Shown here one piece after another: positions 1,898-20,553 of a stretch of 32,000 bases of DNA. Within the stretch, counting starts at the first letter, position 1. Each line of letters begins with the position of its first letter. Location of the stretch: positions 77,756 through 109,755 of the forward strand of contig NZ_JAKZGS010000004.1 in the NCBI RefSeq assembly GCF_022549695.1, read 5' to 3'. Source of the DNA: Belliella calami. Lineage in GTDB: Bacteria > Bacteroidota > Bacteroidia > Cytophagales > Cyclobacteriaceae. A model generated the notes under the pieces. The model had not been told where the DNA came from. It did not search any database and was given only the letters and a program-made list of their open reading frames with translations. The position numbers were made by a program, and so were the translations under genes.

Positions 1898-2593
1898 ATG
1901 AAAGTACTAAAGAAGGTTTTTAGAATTTTGGCCAAAACAGTGATGTGGTTTTTTATCATTACTATTGGGCTTACGGTCGTTTACAAATTTGTACCTGTAC
2001 CAGTGACTCCTTTGATGCTGATAAGGGTATGGGAACAAAGCTTCGATGAAAAAAAAGAAGTCAGATTATCAAAAAATTGGGTATCTATCAAAGAAATATC
2101 CAAAAATCTACCCCAGGCTGTAGTAGCAGCAGAAGATCAAAAGTTCCCTGCACACAATGGATTTGATGTGGAAGCCATGAAAAAAGCTTGGGAAGGTAAC
2201 AAGCAGGGAAAAAGGATCAAAGGTGCGAGTACCATTTCCCAGCAAACAGCAAAAAATGTATTTCTCTGGCCAGGAAGAAACATGATCAGAAAGGGGCTTG
2301 AAGCTTATTTTACAGGATTGATTGAGTTTATCTGGGGCAAAGAACGCATCATGGAAGTCTATCTAAATGTCATAGAAATGGGAGATGGAATCTATGGGGC
2401 AGAAGCTGCATCAAAGGAATTTTTCAAAAAATCAGCTTCTTCACTGTCAAGAAATGAAGCGGCACTTATTGCAGCAACACTTCCGAACCCGAGACGTTGG
2501 TCACCAGCAAGACCTACAGCATATATCTATGGCAGGCAAGTATGGATTCTTAGAAACATGAATAATTTGGAGCCAGTTGGATTTGGAAAGTAA
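1898..2593 (+). CDS. mtgA: monofunctional biosynthetic peptidoglycan transglycosylase
   Basis: An N-terminal TM helix is followed by GT51 motifs AEDQKFPAHNGFD, GASTISQQTAKN and RKGLEAYFTGLIE. The ATG at 1898 (MKVLKKVF...) is preferred to the ORF-track start at 1811, which overlaps the upstream gene. Confidence 0.9.
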   Translation: MKVLKKVFRILAKTVMWFFIITIGLTVVYKFVPVPVTPLMLIRVWEQSFDEKKEVRLSKNWVSIKEISKNLPQAVVAAEDQKFPAHNGFDVEAMKKAWEGNKQGKRIKGASTISQQTAKNVFLWPGRNMIRKGLEAYFTGLIEFIWGKERIMEVYLNVIEMGDGIYGAEAASKEFFKKSASSLSRNEAALIAATLPNPRRWSPARPTAYIYGRQVWILRNMNNLEPVGFGK

Positions 2594-2688
2594 GACTGAC
2601 CGGGATTCTTAATACCATAAAAAATAAAAAAGCCGCGAAACAGAGTCTCACAGCTTTAGTCAATTAACAATAAACCCAAAATAACCAG

Positions 2689-2812
2689 CTGTAGGAGAAG
2701 GATTCGAACCTCCACGGGACAGTTAGGCAAAACACGAGCTCGATATTTGCTTTATCCTGGGACCCCACCCCCGAGACAGGAGGGCATGTCTGCCAATTTC
2801 ATCATCCTACAG
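2689..2812 (-). ncRNA. tRNA-like RNA gene, copy 1 (cloverleaf elements plus an oversized extra arm; isotype not assignable)
   Basis: Read on the minus strand: acceptor stem TGTAGGA/TCCTACA, U8, D-arm ATG-AAATTGGCAGA-CAT, hairpin CCCTC-CTGTCTC-GGGGG, and canonical T-arm GGAGG-TTCGAAT-CCTTC. About 51 nt lie between the anticodon-like arm and the T-arm, giving 124 nt in total. No CCA is encoded. Confidence 0.6.
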
Positions 2813-2859
2813 TATAATATTTTCAATTCAACTAGAAATCTTACATTTCTACAATTTGG

Positions 2860-2985
2860 CTGTAGGAGAAGGATTCGAACCTCCACGGAGCAGTTAGGCA
2901 AAAATACGAGCTCGATATTCGCTTTATTCTGGGATCTCCACCCCCGAGACAGGAGGGCTTGTCTGCCAATTTCAACATCCTACAA
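2860..2985 (-). ncRNA. tRNA-like RNA gene, copy 2 (tandem paralogue of 2689-2812)
   Basis: Same architecture, 171 nt downstream on the plus strand. The differences from copy 1 fall in predicted helices and are compensatory (D-stem A-T to T-A; GGGG/TCCC to GGAG/CTCC). Confidence 0.6.
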
Positions 2986-3356
2986 TTTGTTTTTTCAAAT
3001 TTTCGACCTTTTGTCTTTGTTTGATATTTCAAAGTTAAGAAAACATTCCTTCTATTAAAATTAATTCAACAAATAAGCTAAAAATTTACATAATAAATAC
3101 TTTATAGTGTCAAATGTTATCGATTCGTTAATTTTAATATTTTAATCCCAGTTAATTTTAGAAATATGGAAATGCTATTTTAGCTATTGTTCATTTGTCG
3201 AAAACATGATTTAGAGAAAGTGGAAGATCTTTTACCAAAAACTTCTACTCTTTTTGAGAATCTTCACAGAATAAAAACATTTTTATGGGTATCTGCAATG
3301 CTAGACATTCTTTTGGTCTAAGAAATCAAAAGTTGGATCCAAGACATGCTGAAAAA

Positions 3357-3879
3357 TTAAATCCTAAAGCAATGGGTGGGAGATGTCATGCCCAAATCAA
3401 AGCAAAATGTCTTGATTAGATATTTCTGCATTTTCTTTGATGCTGCGGCGGCCGAATGAAGTAAATTTGATCTGTGTCTACAATAAGTTCTAAGCTCTTC
3501 TGTCTGGCCATCTGGCAAAAAACTTCCAGTTAGTAACCCCAATGTGTGCAGTTTTTGAATCCCTGCCTGACGGCAGGCAGGCACTGACAGTCCAAGACAT
3601 CAGTCTTTTTACCTTTGATGTTTTTGGTGAACTTACCATTACATAATATAAGATGGAACCCTTTTGAAAGCAAGACTGCATAGAGATTTTGCCAGTATGT
3701 CCCTGTACTTTCCATCGCTATAGTTTTTACATTCTTTTCCTTCAACCAATCTGCCATAGCAAACAAATCTTGATTGAATACCCCAAATTCCCGAACATCA
3801 TGCTCGGTTTGACCTACTGCTACCCAGTGGGAGCGACTGCCGACATCACATGCGAAGCATTCATCGACACCAAATAAAA
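3357..3879 (-). pseudogene. IS110-family transposase (DEDD/RuvC-like N-terminal domain), decayed
   Basis: Joining the minus-strand frames gives LFGVDECFACDVGSRSHWVAVGQ...KTIAMESTGTYWQNLY...GKKTDVLDCQ // WIQKLHTLGLLTGSFLPDGQTEELRTYCRHRSNLL, the IS110-family signature. There is no start codon. The frame is broken at 3562-3581 by a GC palindrome (CCTGCCTG-ACGG-CAGGCAGG). There are stops further downstream, and the C-terminal domain is not recognisable. Confidence 0.75.
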
Positions 3880-4067
3880 ACTTTAATAGGAGATAATTCC
3901 CCTAGCCTGCGGATTGACGACTTCCATGGAGATAGATTCCTGTTCCATAAGATTAAGAATAGATAGGTCTCACAGGGGATGTGCTTTTGGCTAGAAAATA
4001 TTCTGAACAGCCTGTCCCGATAGCGAAGCGTATCGGGAGGGTATCTGGCTTTTTAAAGACAAATCCG

Positions 4068-4102
4068 CCACTGAAATCATCGCAAGTATCCCAACCAGAA
4101 TG
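4068..4102 (-). repeat. truncated attC-like half-site (one arm only)
   Basis: The plus strand reads CCGCCA-CTGA-AATCATCGCA-A-GTATCCC. This parallels the right arm of the full repeats (for example CCGCCA-TTGA-GCCAAACTCC-T-GTTATGG at 6285-6320). No partner arm is recognisable to the left. Confidence 0.4.
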
Positions 4103-4243
4103 GCGCCCATGCTCTTCGATTACTCGAGGGCAACATTTCTAAAATCGGCCTTGCTAAAAGGGTAGTAAATTACAAAAAATCTTGCCACGATGCTCTCAAA
4201 CGTTAGCTTACGAAATCAAGTTTTTTAATGTAGGGGGAATTGC

Positions 4244-4377
4244 TGGTAACAGCGGGATTCAGCTTGGAGACGGCGGGCTTTCGGAGCCGTTCGCTTCCAG
4301 CCTACTCTTAGCTTCTTAAAGATACTGAATTTTCAATTTACTCTGAACTGCCCGCTGGATCCAAGGTGATGTTGGCG
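4244..4377 (-). repeat. attC-like cassette recombination site (copy g, most divergent)
   Basis: TGGTAAC-[8 nt]-TCAGCTTGGA-GACG-GCGGGC ... CCCGC-TGGA-TCCAAGGTGA-T-GTTGGCG; 134 nt; the arms pair as in the other copies. Confidence 0.7.
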
Positions 4378-4388
4378 AAAGTTGTTTT

Positions 4389-4787
4389 TTATCTAGTAAC
4401 CCAGTTTTCTAACCTAATACCGGAGATTCTATGAAACTCTTTCAAGTTTTCTGTCACCATTATGAGGTCTTTTTCTATTGCTGTGCAACCAATCAAGAGG
4501 TCAAAATCACTAATCTGCAAGCCTATAGATCTTAATCTGGCTTTCTCTTTTCCATATAGGTAAATTGCGCTAAAAATTGGAAGGATAACAACTTGATTAG
4601 CAAACACTTCAATTAAATCAAGATTCTTTTGAGGGTTTTTACTGTTTTCAGCTCCAAAAACTAATTCTGCCAAAGTAATTTCTGAAATAGCAAAACTCTC
4701 AGTACCTAGCTGTTCAAACTTTTCTATCAATCCATATTTCCCCCTTAAAAAATGGGTACAAATATTAGTGTCTAAAAGATACTTCAT
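4389..4787 (-). CDS. vapC: PIN-domain ribonuclease toxin (VapC-like)
   Basis: 132 aa. The acidic PIN residues are in context (LLDTNI..., ITLAELVFGAE, SDFDLLIGCTA). A 4-nt overlap links it to the small upstream ORF. Confidence 0.85.
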   Translation of the reverse strand: MKYLLDTNICTHFLRGKYGLIEKFEQLGTESFAISEITLAELVFGAENSKNPQKNLDLIEVFANQVVILPIFSAIYLYGKEKARLRSIGLQISDFDLLIGCTAIEKDLIMVTENLKEFHRISGIRLENWVTR

Positions 4788-5041
4788 TCGAAACCAAGGT
4801 TTTCTGTTTTTTCTATTCTGGATTCTCTAATTTCTTTAATGATCTCGTCCGAATCTTTATCATCTTCCCATGCTCCAAAAAGTGTTCGTAAATCCACCTT
4901 CTCTTCTTTTATATCCAGTGACTCGGTCAATTTAATGATTAGTTTTTTCTTGGAAAGATTATCCAAACCTTTCAATAGACCAAAATACTTTTCTATTGCC
5001 TTGTTATTTAATGTGAGGTTTGCCATGCTTTTTTTCTTCAA
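4784..5041 (-). CDS. putative antitoxin partner of the PIN toxin
   Basis: 85 aa, translationally coupled (4-nt overlap) to the PIN gene and rich in charged residues. The start may instead be the ATG at 5026 (MANLTL...). Confidence 0.6.
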   Translation of the reverse strand: MKKKSMANLTLNNKAIEKYFGLLKGLDNLSKKKLIIKLTESLDIKEEKVDLRTLFGAWEDDKDSDEIIKEIRESRIEKTENLGFE

Positions 5042-5082
5042 TTTACGGAATTAATGGATTGATGGTCAAATGATTTAGAAAA

Positions 5083-5553
5083 TTAAATTCCCAACTCTCT
5101 TTTCTTTTTCTGAATCAAGTCTCCCATGTCACTAAAATCTTTTACAAAACCAGATGCTTTGATAAATTCATTGTCGGTATTAAACCAATAAACTTTATTA
5201 TCCCCTTTAATTTTCAATTTATACAAAGGAGGGTAAACAAACTGTATGAGAGAAAGGGATTCCACTTCCATCCAATTTATTTTCCTTTCATACTCTCCAT
5301 TCTTTATAATCACATTTTGGCCTCCTAATTTTACTATCACAAATTTATCCTTAATAGCAATAAATATTGGGAAGCAGACTATTCCTATCACTCCAAAAAC
5401 TAACGTGATAACGATGTTTTGTGCCATTTTCTCACCATTTACCCAGAATAACTCAGGAAAGAACCAAGACAGAAGGGACGTAAATAACATTATTATTCCT
5501 AAGCCTAGAAACAGATATTTCAGTATGTGGTGATATAGATTATTGCTTTCCAT
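5083..5553 (-). CDS. hypothetical membrane protein (two N-terminal TM helices plus a small soluble domain; topology resembles bacterial PH/DUF304-type proteins)
   Basis: 156 aa with two clear hydrophobic helices (LFLGLGIIMLFTSLLSWFF; IVITLVFGVIGIVCFPIFIAI). It is cassette-borne and has no family signature I can name with certainty. Confidence 0.55.
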   Translation of the reverse strand: MESNNLYHHILKYLFLGLGIIMLFTSLLSWFFPELFWVNGEKMAQNIVITLVFGVIGIVCFPIFIAIKDKFVIVKLGGQNVIIKNGEYERKINWMEVESLSLIQFVYPPLYKLKIKGDNKVYWFNTDNEFIKASGFVKDFSDMGDLIQKKKRELGI

Positions 5554-5570
5554 GGCTTTTCTTCAATTTT

Positions 5571-5702
5571 CGATAACGGTTTGCAGCTACCCGAAGGTGG
5601 CGATTTCGAAGCGATTCACTGTCCGTCAAGCAGAAACTTTGATAGAAGCACAAAGCTTGATTTAACCACTGAACCGCCACTTTTGGGTAGGTGCTGTTAT
5701 AG
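5571..5702 (-). repeat. attC-like cassette recombination site (copy a)
   Basis: CGATAAC-GGTTT-GCAGCTACCC-GAAG-GTGGCG ... CGCCAC-TTTT-GGGTAGGTGC-T-GTTATAG; 132 nt. Confidence 0.8.
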
Positions 5703-5711
5703 GGCGTTTTC

Positions 5712-6176
5712 TTATTTTCGAATAAATATGTTTCCAAAATTTCTGCTGCTCGCCATTACTTTGTCTTTGTCCGTTTTGCGTCTGTATCTCGTTCTATCAT
5801 CATTTAACAACTGCAATATTTCGTTTCTTGATTTCGCTACAATTGTATCTGTTTTCGTTTCGATTCTTAAATAGTCAGTCCGCAAGTCACTTTCCTTTAT
5901 TTTTACGTTAAACATCATTCCTGTAAAAATCGATAATATTGTCATTGAGCTGTCAGGCTTTAAAACAACAGTTGTACTGTCCGAAGTTTGATTGTTCGGA
6001 TAATTGTGGATTTGCTTTTTGTCAGAATAATCAAGTCCTGGTCGTACTGTCACCTTCGCTTCATTTGCTGAAGTGTTGTGAATTGTCAATACTTTAAAAC
6101 CTTCGCAACTTGTCAGAAGTATTACGGTTGACAGAAATGTCAGTAATTTCTTTATTCGTTTCATTTCACATTTCAT
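5712..6176 (-). CDS. hypothetical lipoprotein
   Basis: 154 aa. It has a signal peptide with a lipobox (LLTFLSTVILLTSC). It is the only ORF in its cassette. Confidence 0.6.
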   Translation of the reverse strand: MKCEMKRIKKLLTFLSTVILLTSCEGFKVLTIHNTSANEAKVTVRPGLDYSDKKQIHNYPNNQTSDSTTVVLKPDSSMTILSIFTGMMFNVKIKESDLRTDYLRIETKTDTIVAKSRNEILQLLNDDRTRYRRKTDKDKVMASSRNFGNIFIRK

Positions 6177-6188
6177 TTCTTAAATGCA

Positions 6189-6320
6189 CCATAACGTTTT
6201 GGCGCTTGGCGCAGTGGCGGATTTCGGAGCACAAAACTTTCATTTAACCACAAAAGTTGATGCGAGGTAGAATGTTCAATTAACCACGTTATCCGCCATT
6301 GAGCCAAACTCCTGTTATGG
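6189..6320 (-). repeat. attC-like cassette recombination site (copy b)
   Basis: CCATAAC-GTTTT-GGCGCTTGGC-GCAG-TGGCGG ... CCGCCA-TTGA-GCCAAACTCC-T-GTTATGG; 132 nt. Confidence 0.8.
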
Positions 6321-6339
6321 GCTGGGCTTTCTGCTTTTG

Positions 6340-7278
6340 TCATAAATCTGTTTCTCTTTTTACAACTACCATTTCATCAAATCCGTGTTTTATCAATAAC
6401 TTTTTCAATGTTGTAATAAATCGTCTTAATTCTCTTTCTAGGATTGAGTCGTAATCAGGACTGAGTTTATTAAAGTCATTTGGTAGTAAGTTTGAAATAG
6501 CATAATTTATTCCCGTGATTATTGTCGGGAAGTCTATGAATACTAGGGTTTCATCTTTTATTTGAGTATCAATACTGATATTTCTCGGTCTGCCTGCATA
6601 TTTGAAAGAAACATTTTTAGTGTCAATAGAAGATTTCAATCTCTCGAATTGAAGATTTACGTCATCATTGATTTTGTCAGGAACGATAATATTTAGTTTG
6701 CATTTTTTGTATTTAATTCCATCAAGTTCGTACCCATTATTTTCAATTAAATAGCGACAAGTTGGAACAATAAGATTTTCTAAATAAACGGAAGCTAATG
6801 TAGCAGAAGGAAAGAAGTTGATTTCATCATCTGAACTGGAAATGAAGAGGTCCTGTATTTGCTTAACTGCATTTTCAAAACTGCTGTCATTACCATTTTC
6901 AAAAACTGCCAATGACAATCCGCCAAAATCAGAGAGAAGCTTAATCTCCTTGTCTACTAGAAATGCACATTTAGAAGTTCCTAAACGACCTGTAAACAAA
7001 CCTAATTCAAATAGGACGTTATCTCTTGGTTGCAACATTACTTGACCCCTAAATTCGACTTTATCATCATTTGTGCCTAATAAAATTCCAAAGTCAAATT
7101 GTAAAGTCGCTTTAAGCAAATCAGATAGAAAATTCTGATTAATCTTAAAAACCGAAGTGTCCCAAACCTTTTCGTTCCAAATAGTTACATCAAAGTCTTT
7201 TGATAAAATTGCTTTGGCTTTCTCTGCTAATTTTAGTTCTTCGGACGAAGAACCTATGAAAAGTCTCTTTTTTATCAT
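6340..7278 (-). CDS. CBASS effector, TIR-like domain fused to a bacterial STING-like cyclic-dinucleotide sensor domain
   Basis: The N-terminus (RLFIGSSSE...[19 protein letters not shown]) has the TIR-like signature seen in CD-NTase-associated effectors. The C-terminus ([15 protein letters not shown]...GRPRNISID...[16 protein letters not shown]...ELRRF) resembles bacterial STING domains. It overlaps the upstream nucleotidyltransferase by ATGA. Confidence 0.7.
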
Positions 7279-8333
7279 AATCCAAGCGTATTTCTTAGGT
7301 CAACAAATATTCCTTCAACTTCACCAAGTAATAATTTCAAATTCTCCAGTTTTTCTGGGTTATATCTAAAAATATACTCTCTTCCATCTACAGAGATAAT
7401 GCTATCGGATTTAGTTTGATTTGTGCAGATTTCTTTAATTTGATAATAGATTACGGGAACGAGTTCATAAAATGAAAGTGTTTGATATTTATCTACTTCA
7501 ATGTCATAGCATATAGCATTTATATCAAAGCTGCTTAAATCTATTTCTTGATTGGAATTTGCTTTGGTATTCTTCAAAAAACGAATCATTCTTTTTAGTC
7601 TTCCATTAGTATCTGAACTTCTTTCATTAATTCGTTTAATACTAAGAAATGGGAAATCTTTCTTGCCTTTTGAATGGGTTTCTTTATTATAAACTTGAAT
7701 CCCACGATATTCTCCTTTGTCATTTATAACAGAAGATACATCATCATACCAATTGGCAATTACAACATCAACTTCTCGGTTTAGACTTTGATTTTTTATC
7801 TTGATTGATTTTGGTTTTGTGGTGTCGCATATATCATATACATCTTCTAAAATTGTTTCACTATCAAGTCTTAATTGTCTCAAATCCTGAAGTGCGTTTC
7901 CTTGATACGAGCTTGTATTAACTTCCTTAACCATTTTATCAATGGAAACCTGTCTGTATCTATTTTTCTGCTCTACTGATTCAAGTATCTGCTTTATTTT
8001 AGGGGCATCATAAGTATAAAATTTGTCACAAATTGTAAGCAAGTCAATATCACTATAACCTCTAATATGTGTGTCGGTCATTACAGAGCCTTGATATTTA
8101 AAAACAACGTCAGTAAGTTTTTTTGATAAATGTTCTTTAACCCTTTCTCCTGCGTCTTTACTTTTTTGGGTGTATTCAGGTTCGACACCTTTCATTGCAA
8201 GTCTAATGTATGTCAATACTTCACTGTATGAAACAGTCGCAAGTTCATCAGAAAATGATTTTCTCAGTGCGAAGTTCTCTGGGTTGATTCGTCCCTTGAT
8301 ACTTTCTGTAAGTAGTTTATAATTTTTTGCCAT
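7275..8333 (-). CDS. cGAS/DncV-like nucleotidyltransferase (CD-NTase, SMODS-type)
   Basis: 352 aa with the Pol-beta-type catalytic set: YQGS-x11-DIDLL and a downstream REVDVVIAN. Translationally coupled to the TIR-STING-like gene. Confidence 0.7.
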
Positions 8334-8368
8334 TGTTCTATTTTATTGTGGTGTCGTTTTAGCCTTGC

Positions 8369-8500
8369 CCATAACGTTTTGGCGCTTGGCGAAGAAGCGG
8401 ATTTCGAAGCACCAAACTGTCTGCCAGCACTGAACTTGATACGAAGCACAAAGCTTCATTTAAGTACTGAACCCGCTTTTTTGCCAAACGCCTGTTATGC
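8369..8500 (-). repeat. attC-like cassette recombination site (copy c)
   Basis: CCATAAC-GTTTT-GGCGCTTGGC-GAAG-AAGCGG ... CCGCTT-TTTT-GCCAAACGCC-T-GTTATGC; 132 nt. Four AGCAC-type direct repeats start at 8408, 8426, 8445 and 8463. Confidence 0.85.
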
Positions 8501-8534
8501 GGTCGGCTTTCTTTTCTGTAGTCTGTGCTTTCCT

Positions 8535-9329
8535 TCATTTTGTCAAACTTAAGTATTTTTCAAAAAGTCTCGTGAACCCATATTCAAATTTCGGTTGTGT
8601 TTCGTCAACTATAACCCTTAAAGTTTCAATATCCTTTACAAGTCCTGTAATTCTTTCTCCTTTGTCTGAAAGGTCAGAAGAACTGTTTGTGAAGTCCTTT
8701 CTATATTTTCCAAAGTCGGGATAACCAACTTTGAAAGTGAAATCTTGATTTCCAACTGTGTCTGTAAACGTAAACGAACCTTCTTTAAGGTCTAAGTCGT
8801 AATGAAAGTCTGAATTGTTGGTCACAACCATTTTGTCATATATGAAATAATTGAACTCTTTATGAATTGTATCGCAACTGCCGTTTGTGTCAATGAAGCA
8901 ATACCTTACGCTATATGTTTCTGTTGGTAAATTGAATTTGTGGTAAAGTGCTGTAATCATCAAAAAATTTCTTTCTTCAGTCGCTTTGAAAATATCAACT
9001 GGTTGTAAATTGTAATAGTTGCTTGAAACTTGTCTTGCAATCCTAATTTGATTTGTTGGAAAATACTCGCCTTTTGGATAGAAGTATGTCAATAATGCAA
9101 AGTCAAGCAAGAGTATTATTAATAAAAATGTGGTCTTGCTGAATTTAATCTTGTCGCTGAACTTGTAATAAGTCCAAGCACCTATTCCGCCAATTAAAAA
9201 TATGATTGGGTAATAGACCAATAAACAAAGTCCGTAGCCACAAGGTGTCGGAAACAAACTCAATGTCAAAATTGGGATTGTCACACAGACCAAAAAAATG
9301 ATTATTGCAGGTACTTTCTTTTTATTCAT
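8535..9329 (-). CDS. hypothetical membrane protein (three N-terminal TM helices plus a soluble domain of about 170 aa)
   Basis: 264 aa. The hydrophobic N-terminus includes IIIFLVCVTIPILTLSLF, LLVYYPIIFLIGGIGAW and FLLIILLLDFALLTYF. No recognisable family. Single-ORF cassette. Confidence 0.55.
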   Translation of the reverse strand: MNKKKVPAIIIFLVCVTIPILTLSLFPTPCGYGLCLLVYYPIIFLIGGIGAWTYYKFSDKIKFSKTTFLLIILLLDFALLTYFYPKGEYFPTNQIRIARQVSSNYYNLQPVDIFKATEERNFLMITALYHKFNLPTETYSVRYCFIDTNGSCDTIHKEFNYFIYDKMVVTNNSDFHYDLDLKEGSFTFTDTVGNQDFTFKVGYPDFGKYRKDFTNSSSDLSDKGERITGLVKDIETLRVIVDETQPKFEYGFTRLFEKYLSLTK

Positions 9330-9362
9330 TGTCTGTCGTTGTGTGTCGTCTTTTAAGCTGCC

Positions 9363-9494
9363 GCATAACGTTTTGCAGCTACACGCAGGTGGGGATTTTT
9401 AGCACTGAACTTTATTAAAAGTACAGAATTTTGATTTAGCACTTCACTTTCATAGAAGCACTGAACCCCCACTTGCGTGTAGGTGCTGTTATGC
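9363..9494 (-). repeat. attC-like cassette recombination site (copy d)
   Basis: GCATAAC-GTTTT-GCAGCTACAC-GCAG-GTGGGG ... CCCCAC-TTGC-GTGTAGGTGC-T-GTTATGC; 132 nt. AGCAC-type direct repeats start at 9401, 9420, 9438 and 9457. Confidence 0.85.
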
Positions 9495-9502
9495 AACGTT
9501 TT

Positions 9503-11212
9503 TTATAATTCTTTTATTCTTTTCAGTAGTCGTTTATATGAATTAGGTAAATTTTTATGTGGCAAATTGTTAATTACGTGTAATAGAGTTTCGAGTTTTT
9601 TAAGTGACTTTTCTCTAATGTTTAAAATTTCATTCGTGTTTCTATTTGCAATTGGTACATTCAAAAAATTATAAATTAAATTTTGTGCTATTGTGGAAGC
9701 AACTAAATCCATTTCTAAATTGTATTTCATACAAATCACATCATATCTTTCTGAAATATCTAATGCACGACTATGATTTGATGTCAACAGTAATTCCAAT
9801 TGTTGTCGAGAGTTTTGATGGTGAAAAATCTCGTTAATCAAAGTTTCATTTTTGAATATGGTTTGATAATTAAAAAAGCCCGAACCATATCTGCTATTTG
9901 ACTTTTCTCCATTTTGATAGTTAAAGAAAAAGTCTTTATCAATAATTATCGTTTTCGGTATTTCCAAATCCCTTAAAAGGTAATATGCATATTTTAGTGA
10001 TGTAACGCCATCTAACTGTAAGATAGAAATCCCTTTTCTTTCGATTTTAACTCCTTTATTTTCTAAAAGTGTACTAAAAACTCCTGAATCAATTGTACTT
10101 TCCGTTACTAAAACGTGATTCGCAAAGAAAAACTCAGAGTTTCTAAATTTATGAAACTTGTCATACTGCAATCTTTGCAAATTGTAATGAATCCAAAAAT
10201 CGTCCCTTAACTGTAATAATTTACTCTTAAAGGCTCTTTGATTGTCTTTGACTTTTCTTATCAGTAAAATTTTTGTGTGGTCAAGTTGGTCAACAAGAAT
10301 AGTTGAGTGGGTTGTGAAAAGCACTTGAATATTACTGTTTTGAACTTGGTCAAAGAGCGTATAAATTAGTTCTTTTTGACCTTGTGGGTGTAAATTCGTT
10401 TCAGGTTCTTCAAGACCTATAATAAAATTTGTGTGTTTTAATTCGGCTAAATATCTGTAGATAGCGATAGCGACTAAACTTTGTATTCCACTACCACAAT
10501 CTTTTATATTAAATTCTTTGCCATCTTCATTAATTAATATCTCTAAATCATTTAAAAAAAGTTCAAAAGATATTGGAATGTTTGTTCCAATTTTGAATTC
10601 GAACCCTTTATTGGTTAAATACCGACCTTCTATTCCTTGAGCTACTTTTTTTAACGCATTTTTATTCAAATAATCAAATGCATCTTTAACTTTAGGTGTT
10701 AGTGTATCTCTCTTAGCTGTATGATTTGCAAAAAAGACTTTTAATAGTTCTCTCAAAACAGATTCACCATTTCTTTGATAAAATTCCGCAGTCCTATCTG
10801 TTGGTATCAGAACAAATTGCACATCTAAATTTAATTCATTCACTAAGTTATCTTGTGCTATTTCAAAAGTACCATTATTAAATACAAAATACTCCAATTT
10901 ACCACGTGTTTTATTGAACTCTTGTTTAATTTTAATAATGTCATTTACAATGTAAGGAGTGTAAATGACCTTGTTTGGTACATTGGCAAATGAAATTATT
11001 ATCTTCGGAATAGCTCTATTTGTAGAGTATAAATTTACACCTGAAAAGTAATATTGAAGTTCAATTTGAGGATTAAAAAAAGAGTTTAATGCTCTAAGTA
11101 TTGCTGTTTTGCCTGAATTGTTCTGTCCAACAATTCCAAGAATATCTTCAACATCGAAACTGCCTGATTCGATTGACCTAAATTTCGATATTTCTACTTT
11201 GCGTATTTTCAT
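9503..11212 (-). CDS. OLD-family nuclease (ABC-type ATPase + Toprim), single-gene (class 1-like)
   Basis: 569 aa. Walker A is GQNNSGKT, and the Walker B / D-loop region is IIGLEEPETNLHP. The C-terminal Toprim-type acidic motifs are HVLVTESTIDSG and TIIIDKDFF. It starts 10 nt after the preceding repeat. Confidence 0.75.
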   Translation of the reverse strand: MKIRKVEISKFRSIESGSFDVEDILGIVGQNNSGKTAILRALNSFFNPQIELQYYFSGVNLYSTNRAIPKIIISFANVPNKVIYTPYIVNDIIKIKQEFNKTRGKLEYFVFNNGTFEIAQDNLVNELNLDVQFVLIPTDRTAEFYQRNGESVLRELLKVFFANHTAKRDTLTPKVKDAFDYLNKNALKKVAQGIEGRYLTNKGFEFKIGTNIPISFELFLNDLEILINEDGKEFNIKDCGSGIQSLVAIAIYRYLAELKHTNFIIGLEEPETNLHPQGQKELIYTLFDQVQNSNIQVLFTTHSTILVDQLDHTKILLIRKVKDNQRAFKSKLLQLRDDFWIHYNLQRLQYDKFHKFRNSEFFFANHVLVTESTIDSGVFSTLLENKGVKIERKGISILQLDGVTSLKYAYYLLRDLEIPKTIIIDKDFFFNYQNGEKSNSRYGSGFFNYQTIFKNETLINEIFHHQNSRQQLELLLTSNHSRALDISERYDVICMKYNLEMDLVASTIAQNLIYNFLNVPIANRNTNEILNIREKSLKKLETLLHVINNLPHKNLPNSYKRLLKRIKEL

Positions 11213-11222
11213 TTAAAATGTT

Positions 11223-11354
11223 GCATAACGTTTTGCAGCTTGGCGAAGTGGCGGATTTTGAAGCACTTACTTTCAATTTTGCACAAATGTTTATTAGAAA
11301 TCCAAATGTTCAATTTAGCACCGAACCCGCCATTTTGCCAAACTGCTGTTACCA
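11223..11354 (-). repeat. attC-like cassette recombination site (copy e)
   Basis: GCATAAC-GTTTT-GCAGCTTGGC-GAAG-TGGCGG ... CCGCCA-TTTT-GCCAAACTGC-T-GTTACCA; 132 nt. Confidence 0.85.
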
Positions 11355-11370
11355 GCTGGCGTTTTTTCGG

Positions 11371-12003
11371 TTAGTTAAAGTTATAAAGATAACCAATTTC
11401 GTTTAGGTCAGCTTCAAGTTGTTCCCAATTTTCAAGTTCCTCAACGATTGTCAAAACCATATCTTTTGTCAGCGTTTTTCCGTTATAAATTTCTGTCACG
11501 GTTTCCAATGGAATTCCACTTTCTATAAAACTTTCGTCAAAATATTCTGTTGCCCAATCAACATAAGTTTGTGGATTTCCGTCAAAGATGCTCAACATTT
11601 CGTTAGAATTATCTTCGTAATTTTCGATTTGTCCAGTTTTCCAAGCTTTATTTTCGGTTGTCCAAACGCAAAATGTTGTTCCGATTTTTTTTACAGGTTC
11701 TCCAAAAATAAATTCGTCAAAAATAGAAGGTAAATCTTTTGTTAGTTTCTCTTTTTCTTGCTGTTGATATTCGTGAGCAAAACCATTTATTACACAGCCG
11801 TCTGCTCTAAATAAAATTAGCATTTGGTCGCCCGAACCATTTCGCATTTCGCAAAATTCTTCATTGTCTGCCCATTTATTGTTGTATGAATAATATCGAT
11901 ATTCCCATTCTTGTGAAAGAATTGCGTCTAAAACAGAAATTGCTTTGCAAATTGTCTGTAATTTTTGTCTGTCAGGTAAGTTTAGTTCTTTGGTTGAAAT
12001 CAT
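11371..12003 (-). CDS. hypothetical cytoplasmic protein (first cassette of the array)
   Basis: 210 aa, acidic, with no TM helix or signal peptide and no catalytic motif that I recognise. Confidence 0.55.
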   Translation of the reverse strand: MISTKELNLPDRQKLQTICKAISVLDAILSQEWEYRYYSYNNKWADNEEFCEMRNGSGDQMLILFRADGCVINGFAHEYQQQEKEKLTKDLPSIFDEFIFGEPVKKIGTTFCVWTTENKAWKTGQIENYEDNSNEMLSIFDGNPQTYVDWATEYFDESFIESGIPLETVTEIYNGKTLTKDMVLTIVEELENWEQLEADLNEIGYLYNFN

Positions 12004-12126
12004 TTGTTGTCTTATGTTTTTTCGTTTCGGTGTGTGTCGTTATACGCTTGCTGGTAACTTATATATCTGTCTGGAAAAACCAGACTTTAAATACCAATAA
12101 TAAGAAATATGTCTGGTTTTTCAGCT
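12004..12126 (-). other. candidate attI / array-proximal junction
   Basis: GCTGGTAAC at 12050-12058 is the exact reverse complement of GTTACCAGC at the far end of cassette 1's own repeat (11348-11356). The flanking inverted repeat is GAAAAACCAGAC (12074-12085) / GTCTGGTTTTTC (12111-12122), with an extra GTCTGG at 12069-12074. Confidence 0.55.
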
Positions 12127-13245
12127 CTATAAATCTAAATCTTCTAGCGGACTTGTAATCTGCTGAATAGACTTTTGGCTTACATGGGTATAGATCTCCG
12201 TTGTCTTGCTACTTTTATGTCCCAAAAGCTCCTGAATATACCTCAAATCTGTGCCTCTCTCCAGTAAATGCGTAGCGTAAGAATGTCTAAGCCAATGTGG
12301 TGTTACGGTTTTTTTTATACCTGCCTTTTTAACAGCATTTTTTAAAACCTCTGCCAAACTTTTTTCACTATAAGAGCCTCCTTTTTGCCCTTCAAAAATG
12401 TATTCTTTGGGCTTATAGGCTTTATAATATTTTTCGAGTTCAAGAATAAGAGGGGCGGGTAATGTTACCACTCTGTCTTTTTTTCCTTTTGCTTGTTTTA
12501 CCAATAACAAGCCTCTTTCTCTTTGAATGTGCTGAAATTTCAAAGCAAGTAATTCACCTCTTCTGAGACCACAAGCGTAAAGAAACATTAGCATTAATCG
12601 ATGCTTCAAATTCGTTGGGGCATTTAAAATCTTAGAAACCTCCTCTTTACTCAACACGTTTGGTAATAACTTCTCTCTTTTTGGCCTATAGACTATTTCT
12701 GGATTGAATTTGATACCTCTTCTATTCTGGAAAAATAATTTGATGCCATTTACCACCTGGTTTTGATACGAACTTGAATAACCTTTGGCTAAAATATACT
12801 CCTTATTGAATTTTTCAAGGTCTTCATTTTCAATTTCTTCGATAGCTTTATTACTCAAAAATCTTAAAAATATTCTTACAGCATCCTTATAGGTCTTTAC
12901 AGTACTTTTACTATACCGCTTATTCCGCATCCAATCTTCAAATTTACCAATCTCAATTCCCTGAGATGCGGTCAAATGAGGTAAACCTGGAGGGATCTTT
13001 GGAATCTCTACCTTTTTTAATGCTCTATAATCCAAACTTACCTTTCCTTCGAAAAATCCAATCATCTCGGTAATCCTTTCATCAGCGTAACTCACCCACC
13101 ATACCTTCTTTTTGGTATCCCAATTACAGCCTGGAAACTGCTTTACCATCTCCTTTAACTCAAAATCATAAGGAAACTCAATCCTAATAATTGGATTTTT
13201 TCCCATATAGTCATTTTTCAAAACCAGCTGTTTCATAAAAATCAT
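12127..13245 (-). CDS. tyrosine recombinase, Xer-like catalytic domain with an extra N-terminal domain; putative cassette-array integrase
   Basis: 372 aa. The catalytic residues are in context: ACGLRRGELL (R), KGKKDRVV (K), HWLRHSYATHLL (H-x-x-R), LLGHKSSKTTEIYTHV (H, Y), and a C-terminal SPLEDL. Only 87 aa separate the R-box from HWLRH. An alternative start is the ATG at 13236. Confidence 0.85.
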   Translation of the reverse strand: MIFMKQLVLKNDYMGKNPIIRIEFPYDFELKEMVKQFPGCNWDTKKKVWWVSYADERITEMIGFFEGKVSLDYRALKKVEIPKIPPGLPHLTASQGIEIGKFEDWMRNKRYSKSTVKTYKDAVRIFLRFLSNKAIEEIENEDLEKFNKEYILAKGYSSSYQNQVVNGIKLFFQNRRGIKFNPEIVYRPKREKLLPNVLSKEEVSKILNAPTNLKHRLMLMFLYACGLRRGELLALKFQHIQRERGLLLVKQAKGKKDRVVTLPAPLILELEKYYKAYKPKEYIFEGQKGGSYSEKSLAEVLKNAVKKAGIKKTVTPHWLRHSYATHLLERGTDLRYIQELLGHKSSKTTEIYTHVSQKSIQQITSPLEDLDL

Positions 13246-13303
13246 CTTTAAAAATAAACTAACTCAATTTAAGAAATTTGGCTCAAAATGTGTGTCATTT
13301 ATC

Positions 13304-13341
13304 AAAAAAGCCTCGGGTTGACCCGAGGCTTTTCATTTTTT
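13304..13341. terminator. bidirectional rho-independent terminator
   Basis: AAAAAA-GCCTCGGG-TTGA-CCCGAGGC-TTTTCATTTTTT, an 8-bp GC stem with A/T runs on both sides. It lies between the acyl-CoA dehydrogenase stop and the recombinase start. Confidence 0.8.
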
Positions 13342-13367
13342 ACAAATAATCGATTGTCTTATGGGTA

Positions 13368-13403
13368 AAGACCTTCGGGGTTTTTGGAAACCCCAAAGGT
13401 CTT
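13368..13403. repeat. 16-bp-stem palindromic element (AAGACCTT...AAGGTCTT type)
   Basis: AAGACCTTCGGGGTTT-TTGG-AAACCCCAAAGGTCTT, with one mismatch. The same outer motif recurs at 20424-20467. Confidence 0.6.
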
Positions 13404-13505
13404 ACATCCCTAGTGACCTTTGCGAAAAAATAGCCCCTGATCTCTCATAGGCTATTTTAGTATACAATCTTTGTGGCTTAGCGTCTTTGTGGCAAAACCA
13501 CTTAT

Positions 13506-15305
13506 TTAAGAAAAAGGATATTTGCCCTTCTCGATCATGTAATCTGCTATCTGTCTTCTCAAGGTCTTGGTATCGACCAAATCCATCTTGGTGAAGCGCT
13601 TCAAACCCATCAGCATGACTTTCTGCTCATCACCTTTTGTAAATGATCCGATGGCTTCCTTGGCTGCGGCATTGATTCTATCCACAGCTTCTGAAAGATA
13701 TACCTGTGCCATCGCAATCTGATGCTTGCTGGATTCCTCTCCTTGGATACTTACAAGTTTTTCGGTACGAAGAATGGCTGATTCTGAAGCATAGATTTCG
13801 ATCATCACATCTGCCAAGTTCATCATGATCTCTTGCTCATCTTCTATCTTGTCTTGGAGTGCCATGGCTGCTTTGCCACCTACCATCAAGAATACTTTTT
13901 TGAGTTTTTTGAGAACTTCCTTCTCTGCTGCAAATAGCTCTGATGTATCTACTGTATCAAAACTAGGCACAGAAGTCAACTCTTTGGAAACTGCCATCGC
14001 TGGCTCGAAGAGATTGATTTCACCTTTCATGGCTCGCTTTAGAAGCATTCCTACCATAAGCATACGGTTGATTTCATTGGTTCCTTCATAGATCCTGGCG
14101 ATTCTAGCATCTCTGTATGCACGCTCCATTGGTGCATCGGCAGAGTAGCCCATACCACCATATACCTGAACACCCTGATCTACTACATAATCCAAGACTT
14201 CTGATCCATGGATTTTGGAAATGGCACATTCGATCGCAAATTCCTCGACTCCTTTGAGTTTGGCTTGTGTTTCGTCCATTCCCTCAGCGATCAGATGATT
14301 GATCCGGTCTTCGATATCCTGTCCAGCTCTGTAGGTCAATGATTCTGAGACGTACGTTCGGATGGCCATTTCGGCCAATTTTGATTTAATAGCTCCAAAT
14401 GTATTGATGCTTACTCCAAACTGCTTTCTTTCTGTGGAATACTTGATGGCGTGACTAGTTACCGTTCTTACACCACCCAATACACCTGATCCTAGTTTTA
14501 CCCTACCAATATTCAGAATATTCACGGCTATTTTAAATCCGTTACCTCTGTCAGATAGCATATTTTCTACAGGTACTTTGCAGTCATTGAAGAAAACCTG
14601 TCTGGTAGAAGAGCCCTTGATTCCCATCTTTTTCTCTTCTTCATTCATAGAGATTCCGCCAAAATCTTTTTCTACTATAAATGCTGTCAGGTTTTTGTCA
14701 TCATCGATTTTTGCAAAAACGATGAATACATCTGCAAAGCCGGCATTTGAAATCCACATTTTCTGACCATTGATGATGTAGTGTTTTCCATCGTCAGACA
14801 GTTTTGCCTTGGTTTTTCCGCTGTTGGCATCAGAACCAGCATCAGGTTCGGTCAGGCAGTAGCATGCTGCCCATTGCCCAGTGGCAAGCTTGGGAAGATA
14901 TTTTGCTTTTTGGTCTTCTGTACCATAATAGAGGATTGGCAAAGTTCCGATCCCCGTGTGGGCTCCATAGGTGGTAGAAAAAGAACCTGCAGCACCGATA
15001 ATATCGGCAATGAGCATGGAAGTATTGAAACTCATGCCCATTCCATTGTATTTTTCAGGAACAGAAATCCCCAATAAACCCAATTCACCAGCTTTTCTAA
15101 AAATAGAAGGAACTAAATCTGGGTTTTTCATGCTGTCAATCTCTTCGATATTTGGTGTGATCTCCGTATCTATAAAATCTTGACAAGCCTGCGCCATCAT
15201 TTTTTGTTCTTCAGAAAACTCCTCAAAAATGAAGATTTCTTGGGCTTCCGTTTCCTTGATCAGAAACTCACCTCCGTTGATTGATTTTTTGGTTATTGTG
15301 TTCAT
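13506..15305 (-). CDS. acyl-CoA dehydrogenase (long, FadE-like, with a C-terminal extension)
   Basis: ACAD motifs are present (CLTEPDAGSDA, GQKMWISNAG, YEGTNEINR). The ATG at 15305 (MNTITKKS...) is preferred, because the ORF-track N-terminal 11 aa are translated from a GTCTTA-type repeat. Confidence 0.9.
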   Translation of the reverse strand: MNTITKKSINGGEFLIKETEAQEIFIFEEFSEEQKMMAQACQDFIDTEITPNIEEIDSMKNPDLVPSIFRKAGELGLLGISVPEKYNGMGMSFNTSMLIADIIGAAGSFSTTYGAHTGIGTLPILYYGTEDQKAKYLPKLATGQWAACYCLTEPDAGSDANSGKTKAKLSDDGKHYIINGQKMWISNAGFADVFIVFAKIDDDKNLTAFIVEKDFGGISMNEEEKKMGIKGSSTRQVFFNDCKVPVENMLSDRGNGFKIAVNILNIGRVKLGSGVLGGVRTVTSHAIKYSTERKQFGVSINTFGAIKSKLAEMAIRTYVSESLTYRAGQDIEDRINHLIAEGMDETQAKLKGVEEFAIECAISKIHGSEVLDYVVDQGVQVYGGMGYSADAPMERAYRDARIARIYEGTNEINRMLMVGMLLKRAMKGEINLFEPAMAVSKELTSVPSFDTVDTSELFAAEKEVLKKLKKVFLMVGGKAAMALQDKIEDEQEIMMNLADVMIEIYASESAILRTEKLVSIQGEESSKHQIAMAQVYLSEAVDRINAAAKEAIGSFTKGDEQKVMLMGLKRFTKMDLVDTKTLRRQIADYMIEKGKYPFS

Positions 15306-15310
15306 AATTA

Positions 15311-15852
15311 AAGACATTAGACTCAAGACGTAAGACATAAGACAGGCTCATCCACACGTCGAAGTCATTATTATTTTTCAAATTTTAAGATTAATGAATA
15401 GAGCATTTTTTGTATTTCAGTAAGTTCTATTGTCACTACTTGAAATTTTTCACTTTCAATATAGCCTAGCTCAAATGCTACATATAACTGTGTCTCCAAT
15501 TCACAAATAGATCCATGGGCTATCCCAAGAAAATTTGCGAATTCACCATTAGTTCTTCTACCTGCTCCCTCAGCAACATTTGAAGGAACAGACACTGCAC
15601 TTCTTCTAATTTGAGATATAAGCCCAAACCTTTCATCAGATGGAAAAGATTGAGAAATTTTATAAACCTGAACGGTAAGTTTAATTCCTCTTTTCCAAAC
15701 ATTCAATTCTTTGTAGTTATGCATAATTGAAAATTTAAGTTGAACAAAGAGTCAATTATAAAATAGAATTTGTTTCACTTTTGAAATTTGAAACAAGTAG
15801 TGAAATTTTGACGGATACTGTCTTTTGTCTCATATCTTGCGTCTTACATCTC
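15311..15852. repeat. insertion flanked by inverted repeats, carrying the four-helix-bundle gene
   Basis: The left end AAGACATTAGACTCAAGACGTAAGACATAAGACAGG (15311-15346) and the right end CTGTCTTTTGTCTCATATCTTGCGTCTTACATCTCA (15818-15852) form an imperfect inverted repeat. Both are built from GTCTTAY-like heptads. Confidence 0.55.
15371..15724 (-). CDS. four-helix-bundle protein (23S rRNA intervening-sequence protein / Avd-like family)
   Basis: 117 aa. YKELNVWKRGIKLTVQVYKISQSFPSDERFGLISQIRRSAVSVPSNVAEGAGR...GSICELETQL is the characteristic signature of this family. Confidence 0.9.
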   Translation of the reverse strand: MHNYKELNVWKRGIKLTVQVYKISQSFPSDERFGLISQIRRSAVSVPSNVAEGAGRRTNGEFANFLGIAHGSICELETQLYVAFELGYIESEKFQVVTIELTEIQKMLYSLILKFEK

Positions 15853-17026: not shown

Positions 17027-17077
17027 TTTGTGTATCTATTGAGGTTAATTTATTATTTCAGGTTTTGTTATTAACTG

Positions 17078-17279
17078 AACTGAGATTCAAGAGAATCGAG
17101 ATAATTATACTTGATTGAGAGTTTTAGAAATTCAACCCCTTTGGGGTTGCTGCTTCCTTTATCTACTTTTCCCCCGGGTTACGACCCGGGGCTATTCAAA
17201 GTTTAACCCTTTTAGGGTTTGTTTTCCTACAATCTTGTGTCTTACGTCTCATATCTCATAGCTCCCGTCTGACATCTCT
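17078..17279. repeat. gene-less relative of the IR-flanked insertion, containing three short GC hairpins
   Basis: The right end is TGTGTCTTACGTCTCATATCTCATAGCTCCCGTCTGACATCTC (17237-17279). The left end is GAGATTCAAGAGAATCGAGATAA (17082-17104), which has about 15/22 identity to the 15311 end. Hairpins: CAACCCC-TTT-GGGGTTG (17133-17149), CCCCGGG-TTACGA-CCCGGGG (17171-17190) and AACCCT-TTT-AGGGTT. Confidence 0.4.
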
Positions 17280-19683: not shown

Positions 19684-19697
19684 AAGATTATATTGGT

Positions 19698-20180: not shown

Positions 20181-20214
20181 AATAAAATTTACATCCCTAA
20201 TTTAAGAAAAATTT

Positions 20215-20252
20215 GTTATGCATACATACTATTATTAAAAAAAGTTATGCAT
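20215..20252. promoter_or_regulatory. candidate MarR operator (two GTTATGCAT repeats)
   Basis: GTTATGCAT occurs at 20215-20223 and 20244-20252 (29-nt spacing). Each contains the palindrome ATGCAT. The sites lie 35-70 nt upstream of the marR start. Confidence 0.35.
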
Positions 20253-20423
20253 GCAGAGGAAATTTAAAAATGTTTTAATTTACAAAATCAAAATTTTAGT
20301 CTGTTAGAAAGCTTTATCATACCCTTAAAAGTACAATACACGGTAGAAAGCTTTTAATTTCAAAACAAGTTTTTAAAATGGACAAAGTGTTAAAAAGTTG
20401 GAAAGTTCAAAGTTGGAAAGTTG

Positions 20424-20467: not shown

Positions 20468-20553
20468 GATTGCGTGGAATAGATAAATCTAAACTTCTAA
20501 AACTATAGCATTTTCTAAACCAAATCAACTAACATTATTCAACGAATAACTAA

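Follow-up and report, generated by a model that had tools for sequence, protein, structure and literature searches.

A probable integron-like gene-cassette platform with a Xer-like tyrosine recombinase in Belliella calami and other Bacteroidota

In an integron, a tyrosine recombinase gene (intI) accompanies an attI site and an array of promoterless gene cassettes that point in one direction, each with an imperfect hairpin site (attC) bounded by ...AAC and GTT.... Folded DNA is also a substrate of Xer enzymes: CTX phage integrates at dif via XerC/XerD, a Xer pair without the IntI insertion that recombines a one-strand hairpin by exchanging a single strand, and replication resolves the product. 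On Acinetobacter plasmids, pdif modules carry small sets of accessory genes (for resistance or toxin-antitoxin functions) bounded by Xer-type sites. A survey with IntegronFinder placed 93% of complete integrons in Gammaproteobacteria (PMC9024848), and in Bacteroidetes IntegronFinder 2.0 found, apart from In0 elements, a single complete integron, that of Salinibacter (PMC9024848); a 2024 preprint likewise names Bacteroidota among clades 'previously found without any integrons'. Here we analyze a 32-kb stretch of DNA from Belliella calami (Cyclobacteriaceae, Bacteroidota; the whole stretch is referred to as the window, and positions are given in its numbering) in which a tyrosine recombinase gene is followed by an array of genes and hairpin repeats. 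An integron-like gene-cassette platform is the best explanation of this locus, and we give that reading a probability of roughly 80%. In the searchable full texts we found no account of such a recombinase-repeat system (most subscription journals lie outside that coverage, and an earlier description is possible); the product name that NCBI gives the recombinase shows only that curators had noticed a resemblance to integron integrases.

The anatomy of the locus, its conservation and the trace left by recombination are all seen directly. The recombinase gene lies on the minus strand and is transcribed towards the array; on the same strand, 3' of this gene, are ten open reading frames (ORFs) with six repeats between them. 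The recombinase gene, the junction that follows it and the repeats (r1 to r6, counted from the recombinase outwards, each with its score against the covariance model described below) are as follows.

12127-13245, minus strand: tyrosine recombinase gene, 372 aa, assigned by Pfam, NCBIfam and conserved catalytic residues
12056-12126, minus strand: attI-like junction between the recombinase stop codon and cassette 1, with a conserved motif
11223-11354, plus strand: r1, attC-like hairpin, plus being the predicted folding strand; 146 bits
9363-9494, plus strand: r2; 138 bits
8369-8500, plus strand: r3; 146 bits
6189-6320, plus strand: r4; 144.5 bits
5571-5702, plus strand: r5; 144 bits
4244-4377, plus strand: r6, divergent subfamily, 134 nt; 44.7 bits, E 1e-9

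The covariance model was trained on r1-r5 and run with filters off on the 32-kb window, and then on the loci of recombinase homologs. It returned exactly six repeats of about 132 nt in the window, all on the plus strand and within 4238-11360 (E-values from 1e-36 to 1e-9), and no other match below E 0.5. Measured from 7-mer to 7-mer, r1-r5 are exactly 132 nt long, and a repeat follows each minus-strand ORF or operon at a distance of 5-32 nt from the stop codon. An earlier note, made from the letters of the window, had listed six repeats, five of them exactly 132 nt, with one after every minus-strand ORF or operon. All six of its coordinates proved correct, as did the two other statements, and a custom covariance model of the kind that it had proposed recovers the same six copies together with copies in the homolog loci. 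The divergent copy, r6, is 80-90% identical to four repeats of Shivajiella, in whose array the r6 type predominates. No Rfam family fits the repeats, either over the whole window at gathering thresholds or over 2500-12200 at E<=1.

The start of each cassette is complementary to the far end of the repeat belonging to that cassette. When the bases 5' of the AAC of one repeat are set against those that follow the GTT of its distal neighbor, 31 cassettes from 12 genomes show an outer stem of 15 bp: positions 1-10 are 71-100% Watson-Crick paired, T.G is conserved at position 11, pairing is 81-90% at positions 12-15, and position 16 falls to 3%. Pairing within the same repeat reaches 27-69% at the variable positions 4-10, and pairing with the same repeat or with the proximal neighbor is at background level. 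In the window, the first 15 nt of cassette 1 pair with the far end of r1 at 13 of 15 positions, plus the consensus T.G. The fourth base, 5' of AAC, goes with the next cassette in all five informative cases, and the exchange point therefore lies inside the invariant AAC/GTT. The earlier note had proposed this own-cassette complementarity, a crossover at G|TT and units that were formerly circular. The first turns out to be stronger than was claimed, the five informative cases bear out the second, and the third gains from the generality of the footprint across the 31 cassettes. Judged from the sequences, this footprint is the signature that would be expected of circles with an intact site of about 148 nt inserted by crossover in GTT.

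The interior of the site is equally regular. We aligned 68 repeat copies (those of the window plus 33 related loci); the copies had been fitted to the model, so that pairing is somewhat inflated, although the margin is large. The inner stem pairs in 93.8% of cells and both sides change at all 20 pairs; its covariation score is 0.61, compared with 0.17 for shuffled alignments (none of 500 shuffles attained the observed value) and with no more than 0.10 after the partners have been shifted by 1-3 columns. Compensatory changes between copies, noticed earlier by comparing a few repeats of the window, are thus real across the family. The boxes in which that pairing had been described (10 bp, 4 nt and 6 bp on each arm) pair as proposed, but they form a single continuous helix of 20 bp and not separate elements, because the intervening 4 nt also pair, partly as G.T. 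Among the wobble cells of this helix are 101 G.T and 20 A.C, and one G.T pair is conserved in 63 of the 68 copies.

AAC and GTT are invariant in 67-68 of the 68 copies. On the 5' arm AAC is followed by the 5 nt G(T/G)TT(T/C), and on the 3' arm a single invariant T precedes GTT, so that the unequal spacers (5 nt versus 1 nt) described in the window prove to be a conserved feature. A mismatch within the helix (G.G at position 4 or C.A at position 5) is found in all of r1-r5, as had been reported, but family-wide in only 37 of 68 copies. The remark that canonical attC sites use this kind of asymmetry is true only loosely, because the geometry here differs from that of attC. The center measures 70-73 nt in 61 of the 68 copies, contains four direct units of about 18 nt that share (A/G)nCAC(A/T)AAA...T(T/G), and forms no consistent hairpin. 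When the six window copies are folded as DNA, the plus strand (-19.6 to -31.3 kcal/mol) does at least as well as the minus strand (-17.5 to -25.7 kcal/mol); for r2 the values are -31.3 kcal/mol (z -6.4) on the plus strand versus -25.7 on the minus strand. The plus strand of the window repeats is antisense to the cassette genes, matching the 'bottom strand' of attC. GC skew was not used to assign the replication strand, because it is confounded by gene orientation.

The association of recombinase and repeats extends across the phylum. A scan for recombinase homologs with one genome per species gave at least 586 confirmed relatives, placing the family in at least several hundred species genomes; the 120 best share 52-84% identity, and homologs are common in Cyclobacteriaceae and beyond. 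We kept 80 loci, from Cytophagales, Flavobacteriales, Sphingobacteriales, Chitinophagales and Bacteroidales, together with two metagenome-assembled genomes (MAGs) labeled Ignavibacteriota and Comamonadaceae. The repeat model matches 34 of these 80 loci, and 80 of the 82 matches on the expected strand lie downstream of the recombinase gene, although the flanks searched were about 2.5 times larger upstream (597 kb) than downstream (244 kb). The link between recombinase and array that underlay the earlier integron-like reading is in this way extended from one locus to a phylum-wide association, and the scattered behavior of repetitive extragenic palindromes (REPs) or miniature inverted-repeat transposable elements (MITEs), which had been named as the outcome that would speak against it, was not seen: no window copy lies off the array, and 2 of the 82 matches are upstream of the recombinase.

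At 46 loci the assembled sequence stops no more than about 1.2 kb past the recombinase stop codon, and for most loci without a match this distance is within about 1 kb. Many contigs (L002, L040, L042, L046, L057 and others, from MAGs and isolate drafts) end 0-300 nt past that codon; arrays probably break short-read assemblies and hence are under-represented in draft genomes. A different site occurs in a Bacteroidales MAG (L056) whose recombinase is 41% identical to that of the window: eight copies of a repeat of about 155 nt lie at 12036-20713 of that locus, on the plan N6-TAAC-A-stem...stem-CGACC-GTTA-N6, and the own-cassette complementarity is present. The architecture of the site is conserved here while its sequence changes with the enzyme, which suggests that there are several site families that co-vary with the enzyme.

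The attI-like site lies at the 3' end of the recombinase gene, at the head of the array. It has three CCAGAC-type motifs (direct, inverted, direct) followed by ATATATAA|GTTA, and the junction beside the recombinase gene reads ATATATAA|GTTACCAGC; the crossover triplet, GTT on the top strand, is the AAC at 12056-12058 on the plus strand. Most related loci carry a related motif (approximately TATAnAC(A/G/T)A|GTT(A/G)nnnGCAA) 70-125 nt past the stop codon, with three genome-specific motifs of 12-15 nt, again direct, inverted and direct, on its 5' side. Treponema integrons likewise have attI at the 3' end of intI, whereas in most integrons it is at the 5' end. Past the last repeat, the 11 nt at 4240-4250 read GTTACCAGCAA on the top strand, the same as the start of cassette 1 at 12048-12058, and GTTACCnGCAA, which resembles these 11 nt, stands at attI in several other genomes. 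The 11 nt (GTTACCAGCAA) could be what is left of a seventh cassette, or a half-site derived from attI.

The recombinase itself has a 100% identical counterpart in Belliella sp. DSM 107340 and matches Pfam Phage_integrase (3e-40) and Phage_int_SAM_4 (9e-15). It comprises a HARP-like domain (about residues 1-75), a SAM-like core-binding domain (101-174) and a catalytic domain (197-357) in which the conserved catalytic residues are intact (R228, K253, H317, R320, H343 and Y352). Among curated models it exceeds the cut-off of NF040815 ('site-specific tyrosine recombinase/integron integrase', built on XerA; 230 bits, cut-off 220), and falls below the cut-offs of the IntI model TIGR02249 (203 bits, cut-off 265, matched in two stretches), PRK15417 (121 bits, cut-off 435) and the bacterial XerC and XerD models (186 versus 335 and 198 versus 330). 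In an alignment with VchIntIA (2a3v), IntI residues 183-242 (60 residues) are skipped and the recombinase has 17 residues there; a profile of 46 family members breaks at the same place. The insertion that defines IntI is therefore absent, and the AlphaFold model of the recombinase contains no IntI-type extra helix. With the same profile, archaeal XerA scores higher (201 and 191 bits) than IntI (171) and E. coli XerD (145), and the full-length structural model matches only Xer, IntI and lambda-type recombinases in the PDB. No close full-length homolog was found in the phage collection.

The N-terminal domain is an extra, conserved element of about 75 residues (about 95 by another count), with a linker after it. 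Pfam HARP gives sub-threshold matches (E 0.0072-0.023) in 6 of 13 family members; Foldseek with this domain places SMARCAL1 HARP (4o66) first among PDB entries (E 0.053, probability 0.80), with the XPB damage-recognition domain next; and a phmmer search with residues 1-96 finds both true HARP-SNF2 helicases and HARP-only proteins. These three independent methods, each weak to moderate, point to a predicted HARP fold. HARP domains bind forked or junction DNA, at the boundary between single and double strands. A housekeeping Xer (XerC, XerD or XerA acting on a single dif site) was considered for this protein and rejected, given its extra N-terminal domain and its tie to arrays of sites. In a metagenomic genome (L084), an ordinary 294-aa Xer is encoded at 5806-6690, between rpsU and the gene for a ribosome hibernation factor and about 3.3 kb upstream of a 369-aa recombinase of the array type; the two coexist, and the array enzyme is therefore an extra paralog and not the dimer resolvase.

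Array content differs between relatives. Shivajiella indica shares with the window the chromosomal site of the recombinase, next to upstream genes (for an acyl-CoA dehydrogenase, a thiolase, a 3-hydroxyacyl-CoA dehydrogenase, MarR and an AMP-binding enzyme) that are 71-78% identical to those of the window at the DNA level (about 76% for the backbone). Its cassettes differ (a 192-aa ORF, a Gp49/helix-turn-helix pair, a helix-turn-helix protein and a Fic protein) except for the most distal one, which is the only one shared (window 4276-5588, 91% identity over 1314 nt). An array identical in all relatives, which the earlier note had regarded as evidence against a cassette system, is thus not what we find. 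In Belliella pelovolcani the recombinase is at another locus (L082, 11262-19061) with seven repeats and seven cassettes other than those of the window, including an Fe/Mn superoxide dismutase and a LinB-like nucleotidyltransferase (a family of the lincosamide-resistance type). One gene of that array, for a sulfate transporter, is in the opposite orientation.

The r5 repeat is about 94% identical to repeats in a Sphingobacteriales MAG (L059, 12748-12891) and a Bacteroidales MAG (L032, 9669-9812) whose recombinases are less than 50% identical to that of the window, and the gene before the r5-like repeat is unrelated (a 154-aa ORF in the window, a 190-aa HNH ORF in L059). In a Flavobacteriales locus with 18 repeats (L022), the cassettes at 5927-6737 and 10349-11159 have identical boundary sequences on both sides, which suggests duplication of a cassette within that array. 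On a 66-kb plasmid of Chryseobacterium sp. SNU WT5 (L085, NZ_CP041688.1), the recombinase homolog is followed by five repeats, two of which (16254-17592 and 18677-20661) are near-identical and are interrupted at the same point, right after the ...AATAC(T/C)GT of the right-hand GTT. The interrupting sequence is an IS110-family element in one and a group II intron (matched by three Rfam intron models) in the other, and both insertions are on the folding strand, antisense to the cassettes. In integrons, IS1111-attC elements and group IIC-attC introns behave likewise (PMC3001079).

We infer that catalysis is the work of the adjacent enzyme, that its substrate is the bottom strand in folded form, that one strand only is exchanged, and that recognition of the structure falls to the HARP-like domain. 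In this proposal the Xer/IntI-like recombinase (12127-13245) would recombine the attI-like site past its own stop codon with the attC-like sites of cassettes; a cassette consists of one promoterless gene or a small operon, with a site of about 148 nt behind it. While the cassette is free and circular, this site would fold on the strand antisense to the genes, into an outer stem of 15 bp, a bulge of 5 nt on the AAC arm facing one T, an inner stem of 20 bp and a center of 72 nt. As in integrons, strands would be exchanged within the invariant AAC, which is GTT on the coding strand; because the exchange would fall there, insertion would split the outer stem and leave every arrayed cassette starting with a sequence complementary to the far end of its own site. 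A single strand would most likely be exchanged, because only one strand folds well, and replication would complete the reaction as it does for attC. The HARP-like domain may assume the structure-recognition role of the IntI insertion, and the array would stockpile accessory genes, here mainly for anti-phage and toxin-antitoxin functions.

An alternative is that the sites are double-stranded and of the Xer type, in the manner of pdif/Xer modules or tandemly accreted integrative islets, with no folded single strand. The similarity of the recombinase, greatest to Xer proteins, would suit such a model, and tandem insertion of duplex circles leaves the same junction footprint. We nonetheless consider it unlikely. 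The arm sequences vary freely while their pairing is kept, so that shape and not duplex sequence appears to be recognized; G.T outnumbers A.C 5:1 on one strand and two wobble positions are conserved, a bias that argues against a duplex because duplex DNA cannot select for it. In addition, insertions of the kinds that parasitize folded attC strands enter that same strand here, and one genome with this enzyme encodes an ordinary 294-aa Xer as well.

The locus might instead be an ordinary IntI/attC integron in reverse orientation, as in Treponema, that is merely divergent in sequence. This would account for sites bounded by AAC and GTT, for the own-cassette footprint and for an attI with GTT at its end, as well as for the IntI model score of 203 bits, the presence of VchIntIA among the best structural matches and a C-terminal tail, SP(L/F)(E/D)DL, that resembles the SPL tail aligned in VchIntIA; the intI of Treponema is also transcribed towards attI (PMC3607928). 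The enzyme, however, has 17 residues where VchIntIA has 60, stays below the curated IntI cut-off, is matched better by archaeal XerA and carries a HARP-like domain foreign to IntI. The site differs in geometry (spacers of 1 versus 5 nt, a stem of 15 + 20 bp, a fixed center), and surveys show almost no integrons in Bacteroidetes (PMC9024848), yet the family is present in at least several hundred species genomes. An ordinary integron is accordingly a distinctly improbable explanation. What stands of the earlier integron reading is the integron-like cassette array; the equivalence with canonical integrons that it implied fails, since the recombinase lacks the IntI domain, its gene faces the array and the site has another geometry. 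The element appears to work like an integron, but it should not be filed in the IntI/attC family. Beyond the platform itself, we give about even odds to the view that it represents a second integron lineage, either evolved independently from a Xer-like ancestor or itself a deep sister of IntI, in which a fused HARP-like sensor, and not the IntI insertion, would enable the recombinase to recognize folded single-stranded cassette sites, and widespread in Bacteroidota; such a lineage may live on both chromosomes and plasmids, be missed by integron-finding tools and carry anti-phage and resistance-type genes.

That the repeats are selfish REP/MITE-like elements or terminators, with an unrelated integrase as neighbor, is highly improbable: intergenic hairpins after stop codons are what such elements would look like, but distribution, polarity and stem all contradict it, in that strand and position relative to the recombinase are fixed phylum-wide (80 of 82 matches) and no window copy is found outside the array, no T-run follows the hairpin on the transcribed strand, the antisense strand folds better, and the cassette-specific outer stem is left without explanation. 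A CRISPR-like array (clustered regularly interspaced short palindromic repeats) was also considered and rejected.

Several points weigh against the integron-like platform or parts of its proposed mechanism. Circular cassettes, and gain and loss within the array, are read indirectly, from the footprint and from relatives. The recombinase is without the IntI domain that reads extrahelical bases, and its mode of structure recognition is therefore conjecture; individual scores for the HARP assignment are weak (Pfam E 0.007-0.02, Foldseek E 0.05). Exchange of a single strand rests on the G.T bias and on folding energy, and a route through duplex or cruciform DNA is possible. The center of attC is a variable hairpin, whereas that of the repeat is a fixed 72 nt with four units of about 18 nt. 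The covariance model finds no repeats at several loci that have ample downstream DNA (L011, L019, L045, L071 and L075 among them). Finally, no promoter was found for the array: on the cassette strand, from 13500 to 4200, the Bacteroidetes promoter TTTG-N17-23-TAnnTTTG is absent.

Transcription of the cassettes by read-through from the recombinase gene is possible, as far as the sequence allows a judgment. The leaders before the start codons measure 16-54 nt. In cassettes 1, 3 and 4 a shared motif, ...GCAAGnnTAAAA(C)GAC(G)ACAC..., stands between GTTA-N6 and ATG (12005-12045, 9331-9355 and 8336-8362, top strand); the motif also occurs in the first cassettes of B. pelovolcani and of an Algoriphagus locus, and does not match the Bacteroidetes promoter consensus.

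The cassettes of the window, with their genes, are listed here from the recombinase outwards.

11229-12057, minus strand: cassette 1 (829 nt); ORF 11371-12003, 210 aa, no family match above threshold; r1
9369-11228, minus strand: cassette 2 (1860 nt); ORF 9503-11212, 569 aa, OLD-family ATPase-TOPRIM nuclease; r2
8375-9368, minus strand: cassette 3 (994 nt); ORF 8535-9329, 264 aa, no family match; r3
6195-8374, minus strand: cassette 4 (2180 nt); two-gene operon of a cyclic oligonucleotide-based anti-phage signaling system (CBASS); r4
7275-8333, minus strand: CD-NTase of cassette 4, 352 aa; PADLOC cyclase 8.6e-159
6340-7278, minus strand: TIR-STING effector Cap12 of cassette 4, 312 aa; PADLOC TIR effector 3.7e-119
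5577-6194, minus strand: cassette 5 (618 nt); ORF 5712-6176, 154 aa, no family match; r5
4250-5576, minus strand: cassette 6 (1327 nt); three ORFs; r6
5083-5553, minus strand: first ORF of cassette 6, 156 aa, no assignment
4784-5041, minus strand: ORF of cassette 6 in the antitoxin (VapB) position, 85 aa
4389-4787, minus strand: VapC PIN toxin of cassette 6; NCBIfam VapC 8.3e-37, Pfam PIN

The OLD protein of cassette 2 is of an anti-phage type (Pfam AAA_15, AAA_21 and OLD-like_TOPRIM; PADLOC Old 4.9e-46 and GajA 1.6e-31), and Cap12 is assigned by NCBIfam at 519 bits (cut-off 450) and by Pfam as prok_STING and CAP12-PCTIR_TIR. Anti-phage cargo has also been reported for the chromosomal integrons of Vibrio (bioRxiv 10.1101/2024.07.02.601686). 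By eye, the N-terminus of the cassette 5 protein is lipoprotein-like. The G+C content of the array is 0.31-0.36, compared with 0.40-0.43 for the neighboring beta-oxidation genes. Nucleotide and protein BLAST of the window cassettes against all fetched loci returned nothing beyond the distal Shivajiella cassette and a distantly related OLD protein; with sharing this sparse, the same cassette at different array positions could therefore not be demonstrated. Just past the last repeat, frame-broken pieces of an IS110-family transposase (Pfam DEDD_Tnp_IS110) occupy 3317-3766, and the 91-nt remnant at 3317-3407 is 83.5% identical to a stretch inside a pirin gene 3' of the Shivajiella array. The distal end of the array looks eroded. 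Farther out, at 2688-3058 on the minus strand, two tandem units of about 172 nt (84-96% identical) have a tRNA-like T-arm and acceptor end (GGAGGTTCGAATCCTTCTCCTACAGC); ARAGORN makes no tRNA call there, and Rfam gives no match even at E 1.

A phylum-wide system with integron logic, but with another recombinase and another site, would bring gene capture by cassettes to a major phylum of environmental and host-associated bacteria. If the interpretation is true, the IntI insertion is not the sole route to recombining folded DNA, and the family offers a natural comparison for how recognition of single-strand sites can evolve from Xer-like enzymes. The arrays would also hold an unsurveyed pool of cassettes, among them TIR-STING CBASS, an OLD nuclease and VapBC in the window and a LinB-like nucleotidyltransferase, superoxide dismutase and Fic in relatives, for which the conserved 132-nt site provides a handle for cassette-targeted polymerase chain reaction or metagenomic mining in Bacteroidota.

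Among known systems, REPs with their REP-associated tyrosine transposases (RAYTs) resemble this one in combining intergenic hairpin repeats with a DNA-processing enzyme; REPs, however, are short, dispersed genome-wide in both orientations and served by HUH enzymes, whereas the repeats here form a polar array with a tyrosine recombinase. CTX integration at dif, as generally understood, brings a phage genome into the site of chromosome dimer resolution by means of housekeeping enzymes, and has no dedicated recombinase gene, attI or cassette array. Sites of pdif modules are generally described as 28-bp duplexes in alternating orientation that are acted on by the XerC/XerD of the host; here the sites are covarying hairpins of about 132-148 nt in direct orientation, with a dedicated recombinase alongside.

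Integrons are closest. Both systems have a tyrosine recombinase gene, an attI or attI-like site and promoterless cassettes in one direction; an imperfect hairpin site with ...AAC and GTT... ends for each cassette; a crossover in GTT, with the cassette start complementing the far end of its own site; and a favored folding strand antisense to the genes. In both, content varies between relatives and includes toxin-antitoxin and anti-phage cassettes, and IS110-family elements and group II introns insert into the bottom strand of the site. The integrase of Treponema integrons is transcribed towards attI, as here, and that of canonical integrons away from the array. The two systems differ in enzyme, site and host. 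IntI has its specific insertion, and the present recombinase has an N-terminal HARP-like domain and no such insertion. The outer stem of attC is 7 bp long and that of the site here 15 bp; attC has R and L boxes, a symmetric unpaired central spacer and bulged extrahelical bases, where the present site has a bulge of 5 nt against 1 nt and sometimes a mismatch. And the host range of integrons, as IntegronFinder sees it, takes in almost no Bacteroidota, the phylum in which this system is found.

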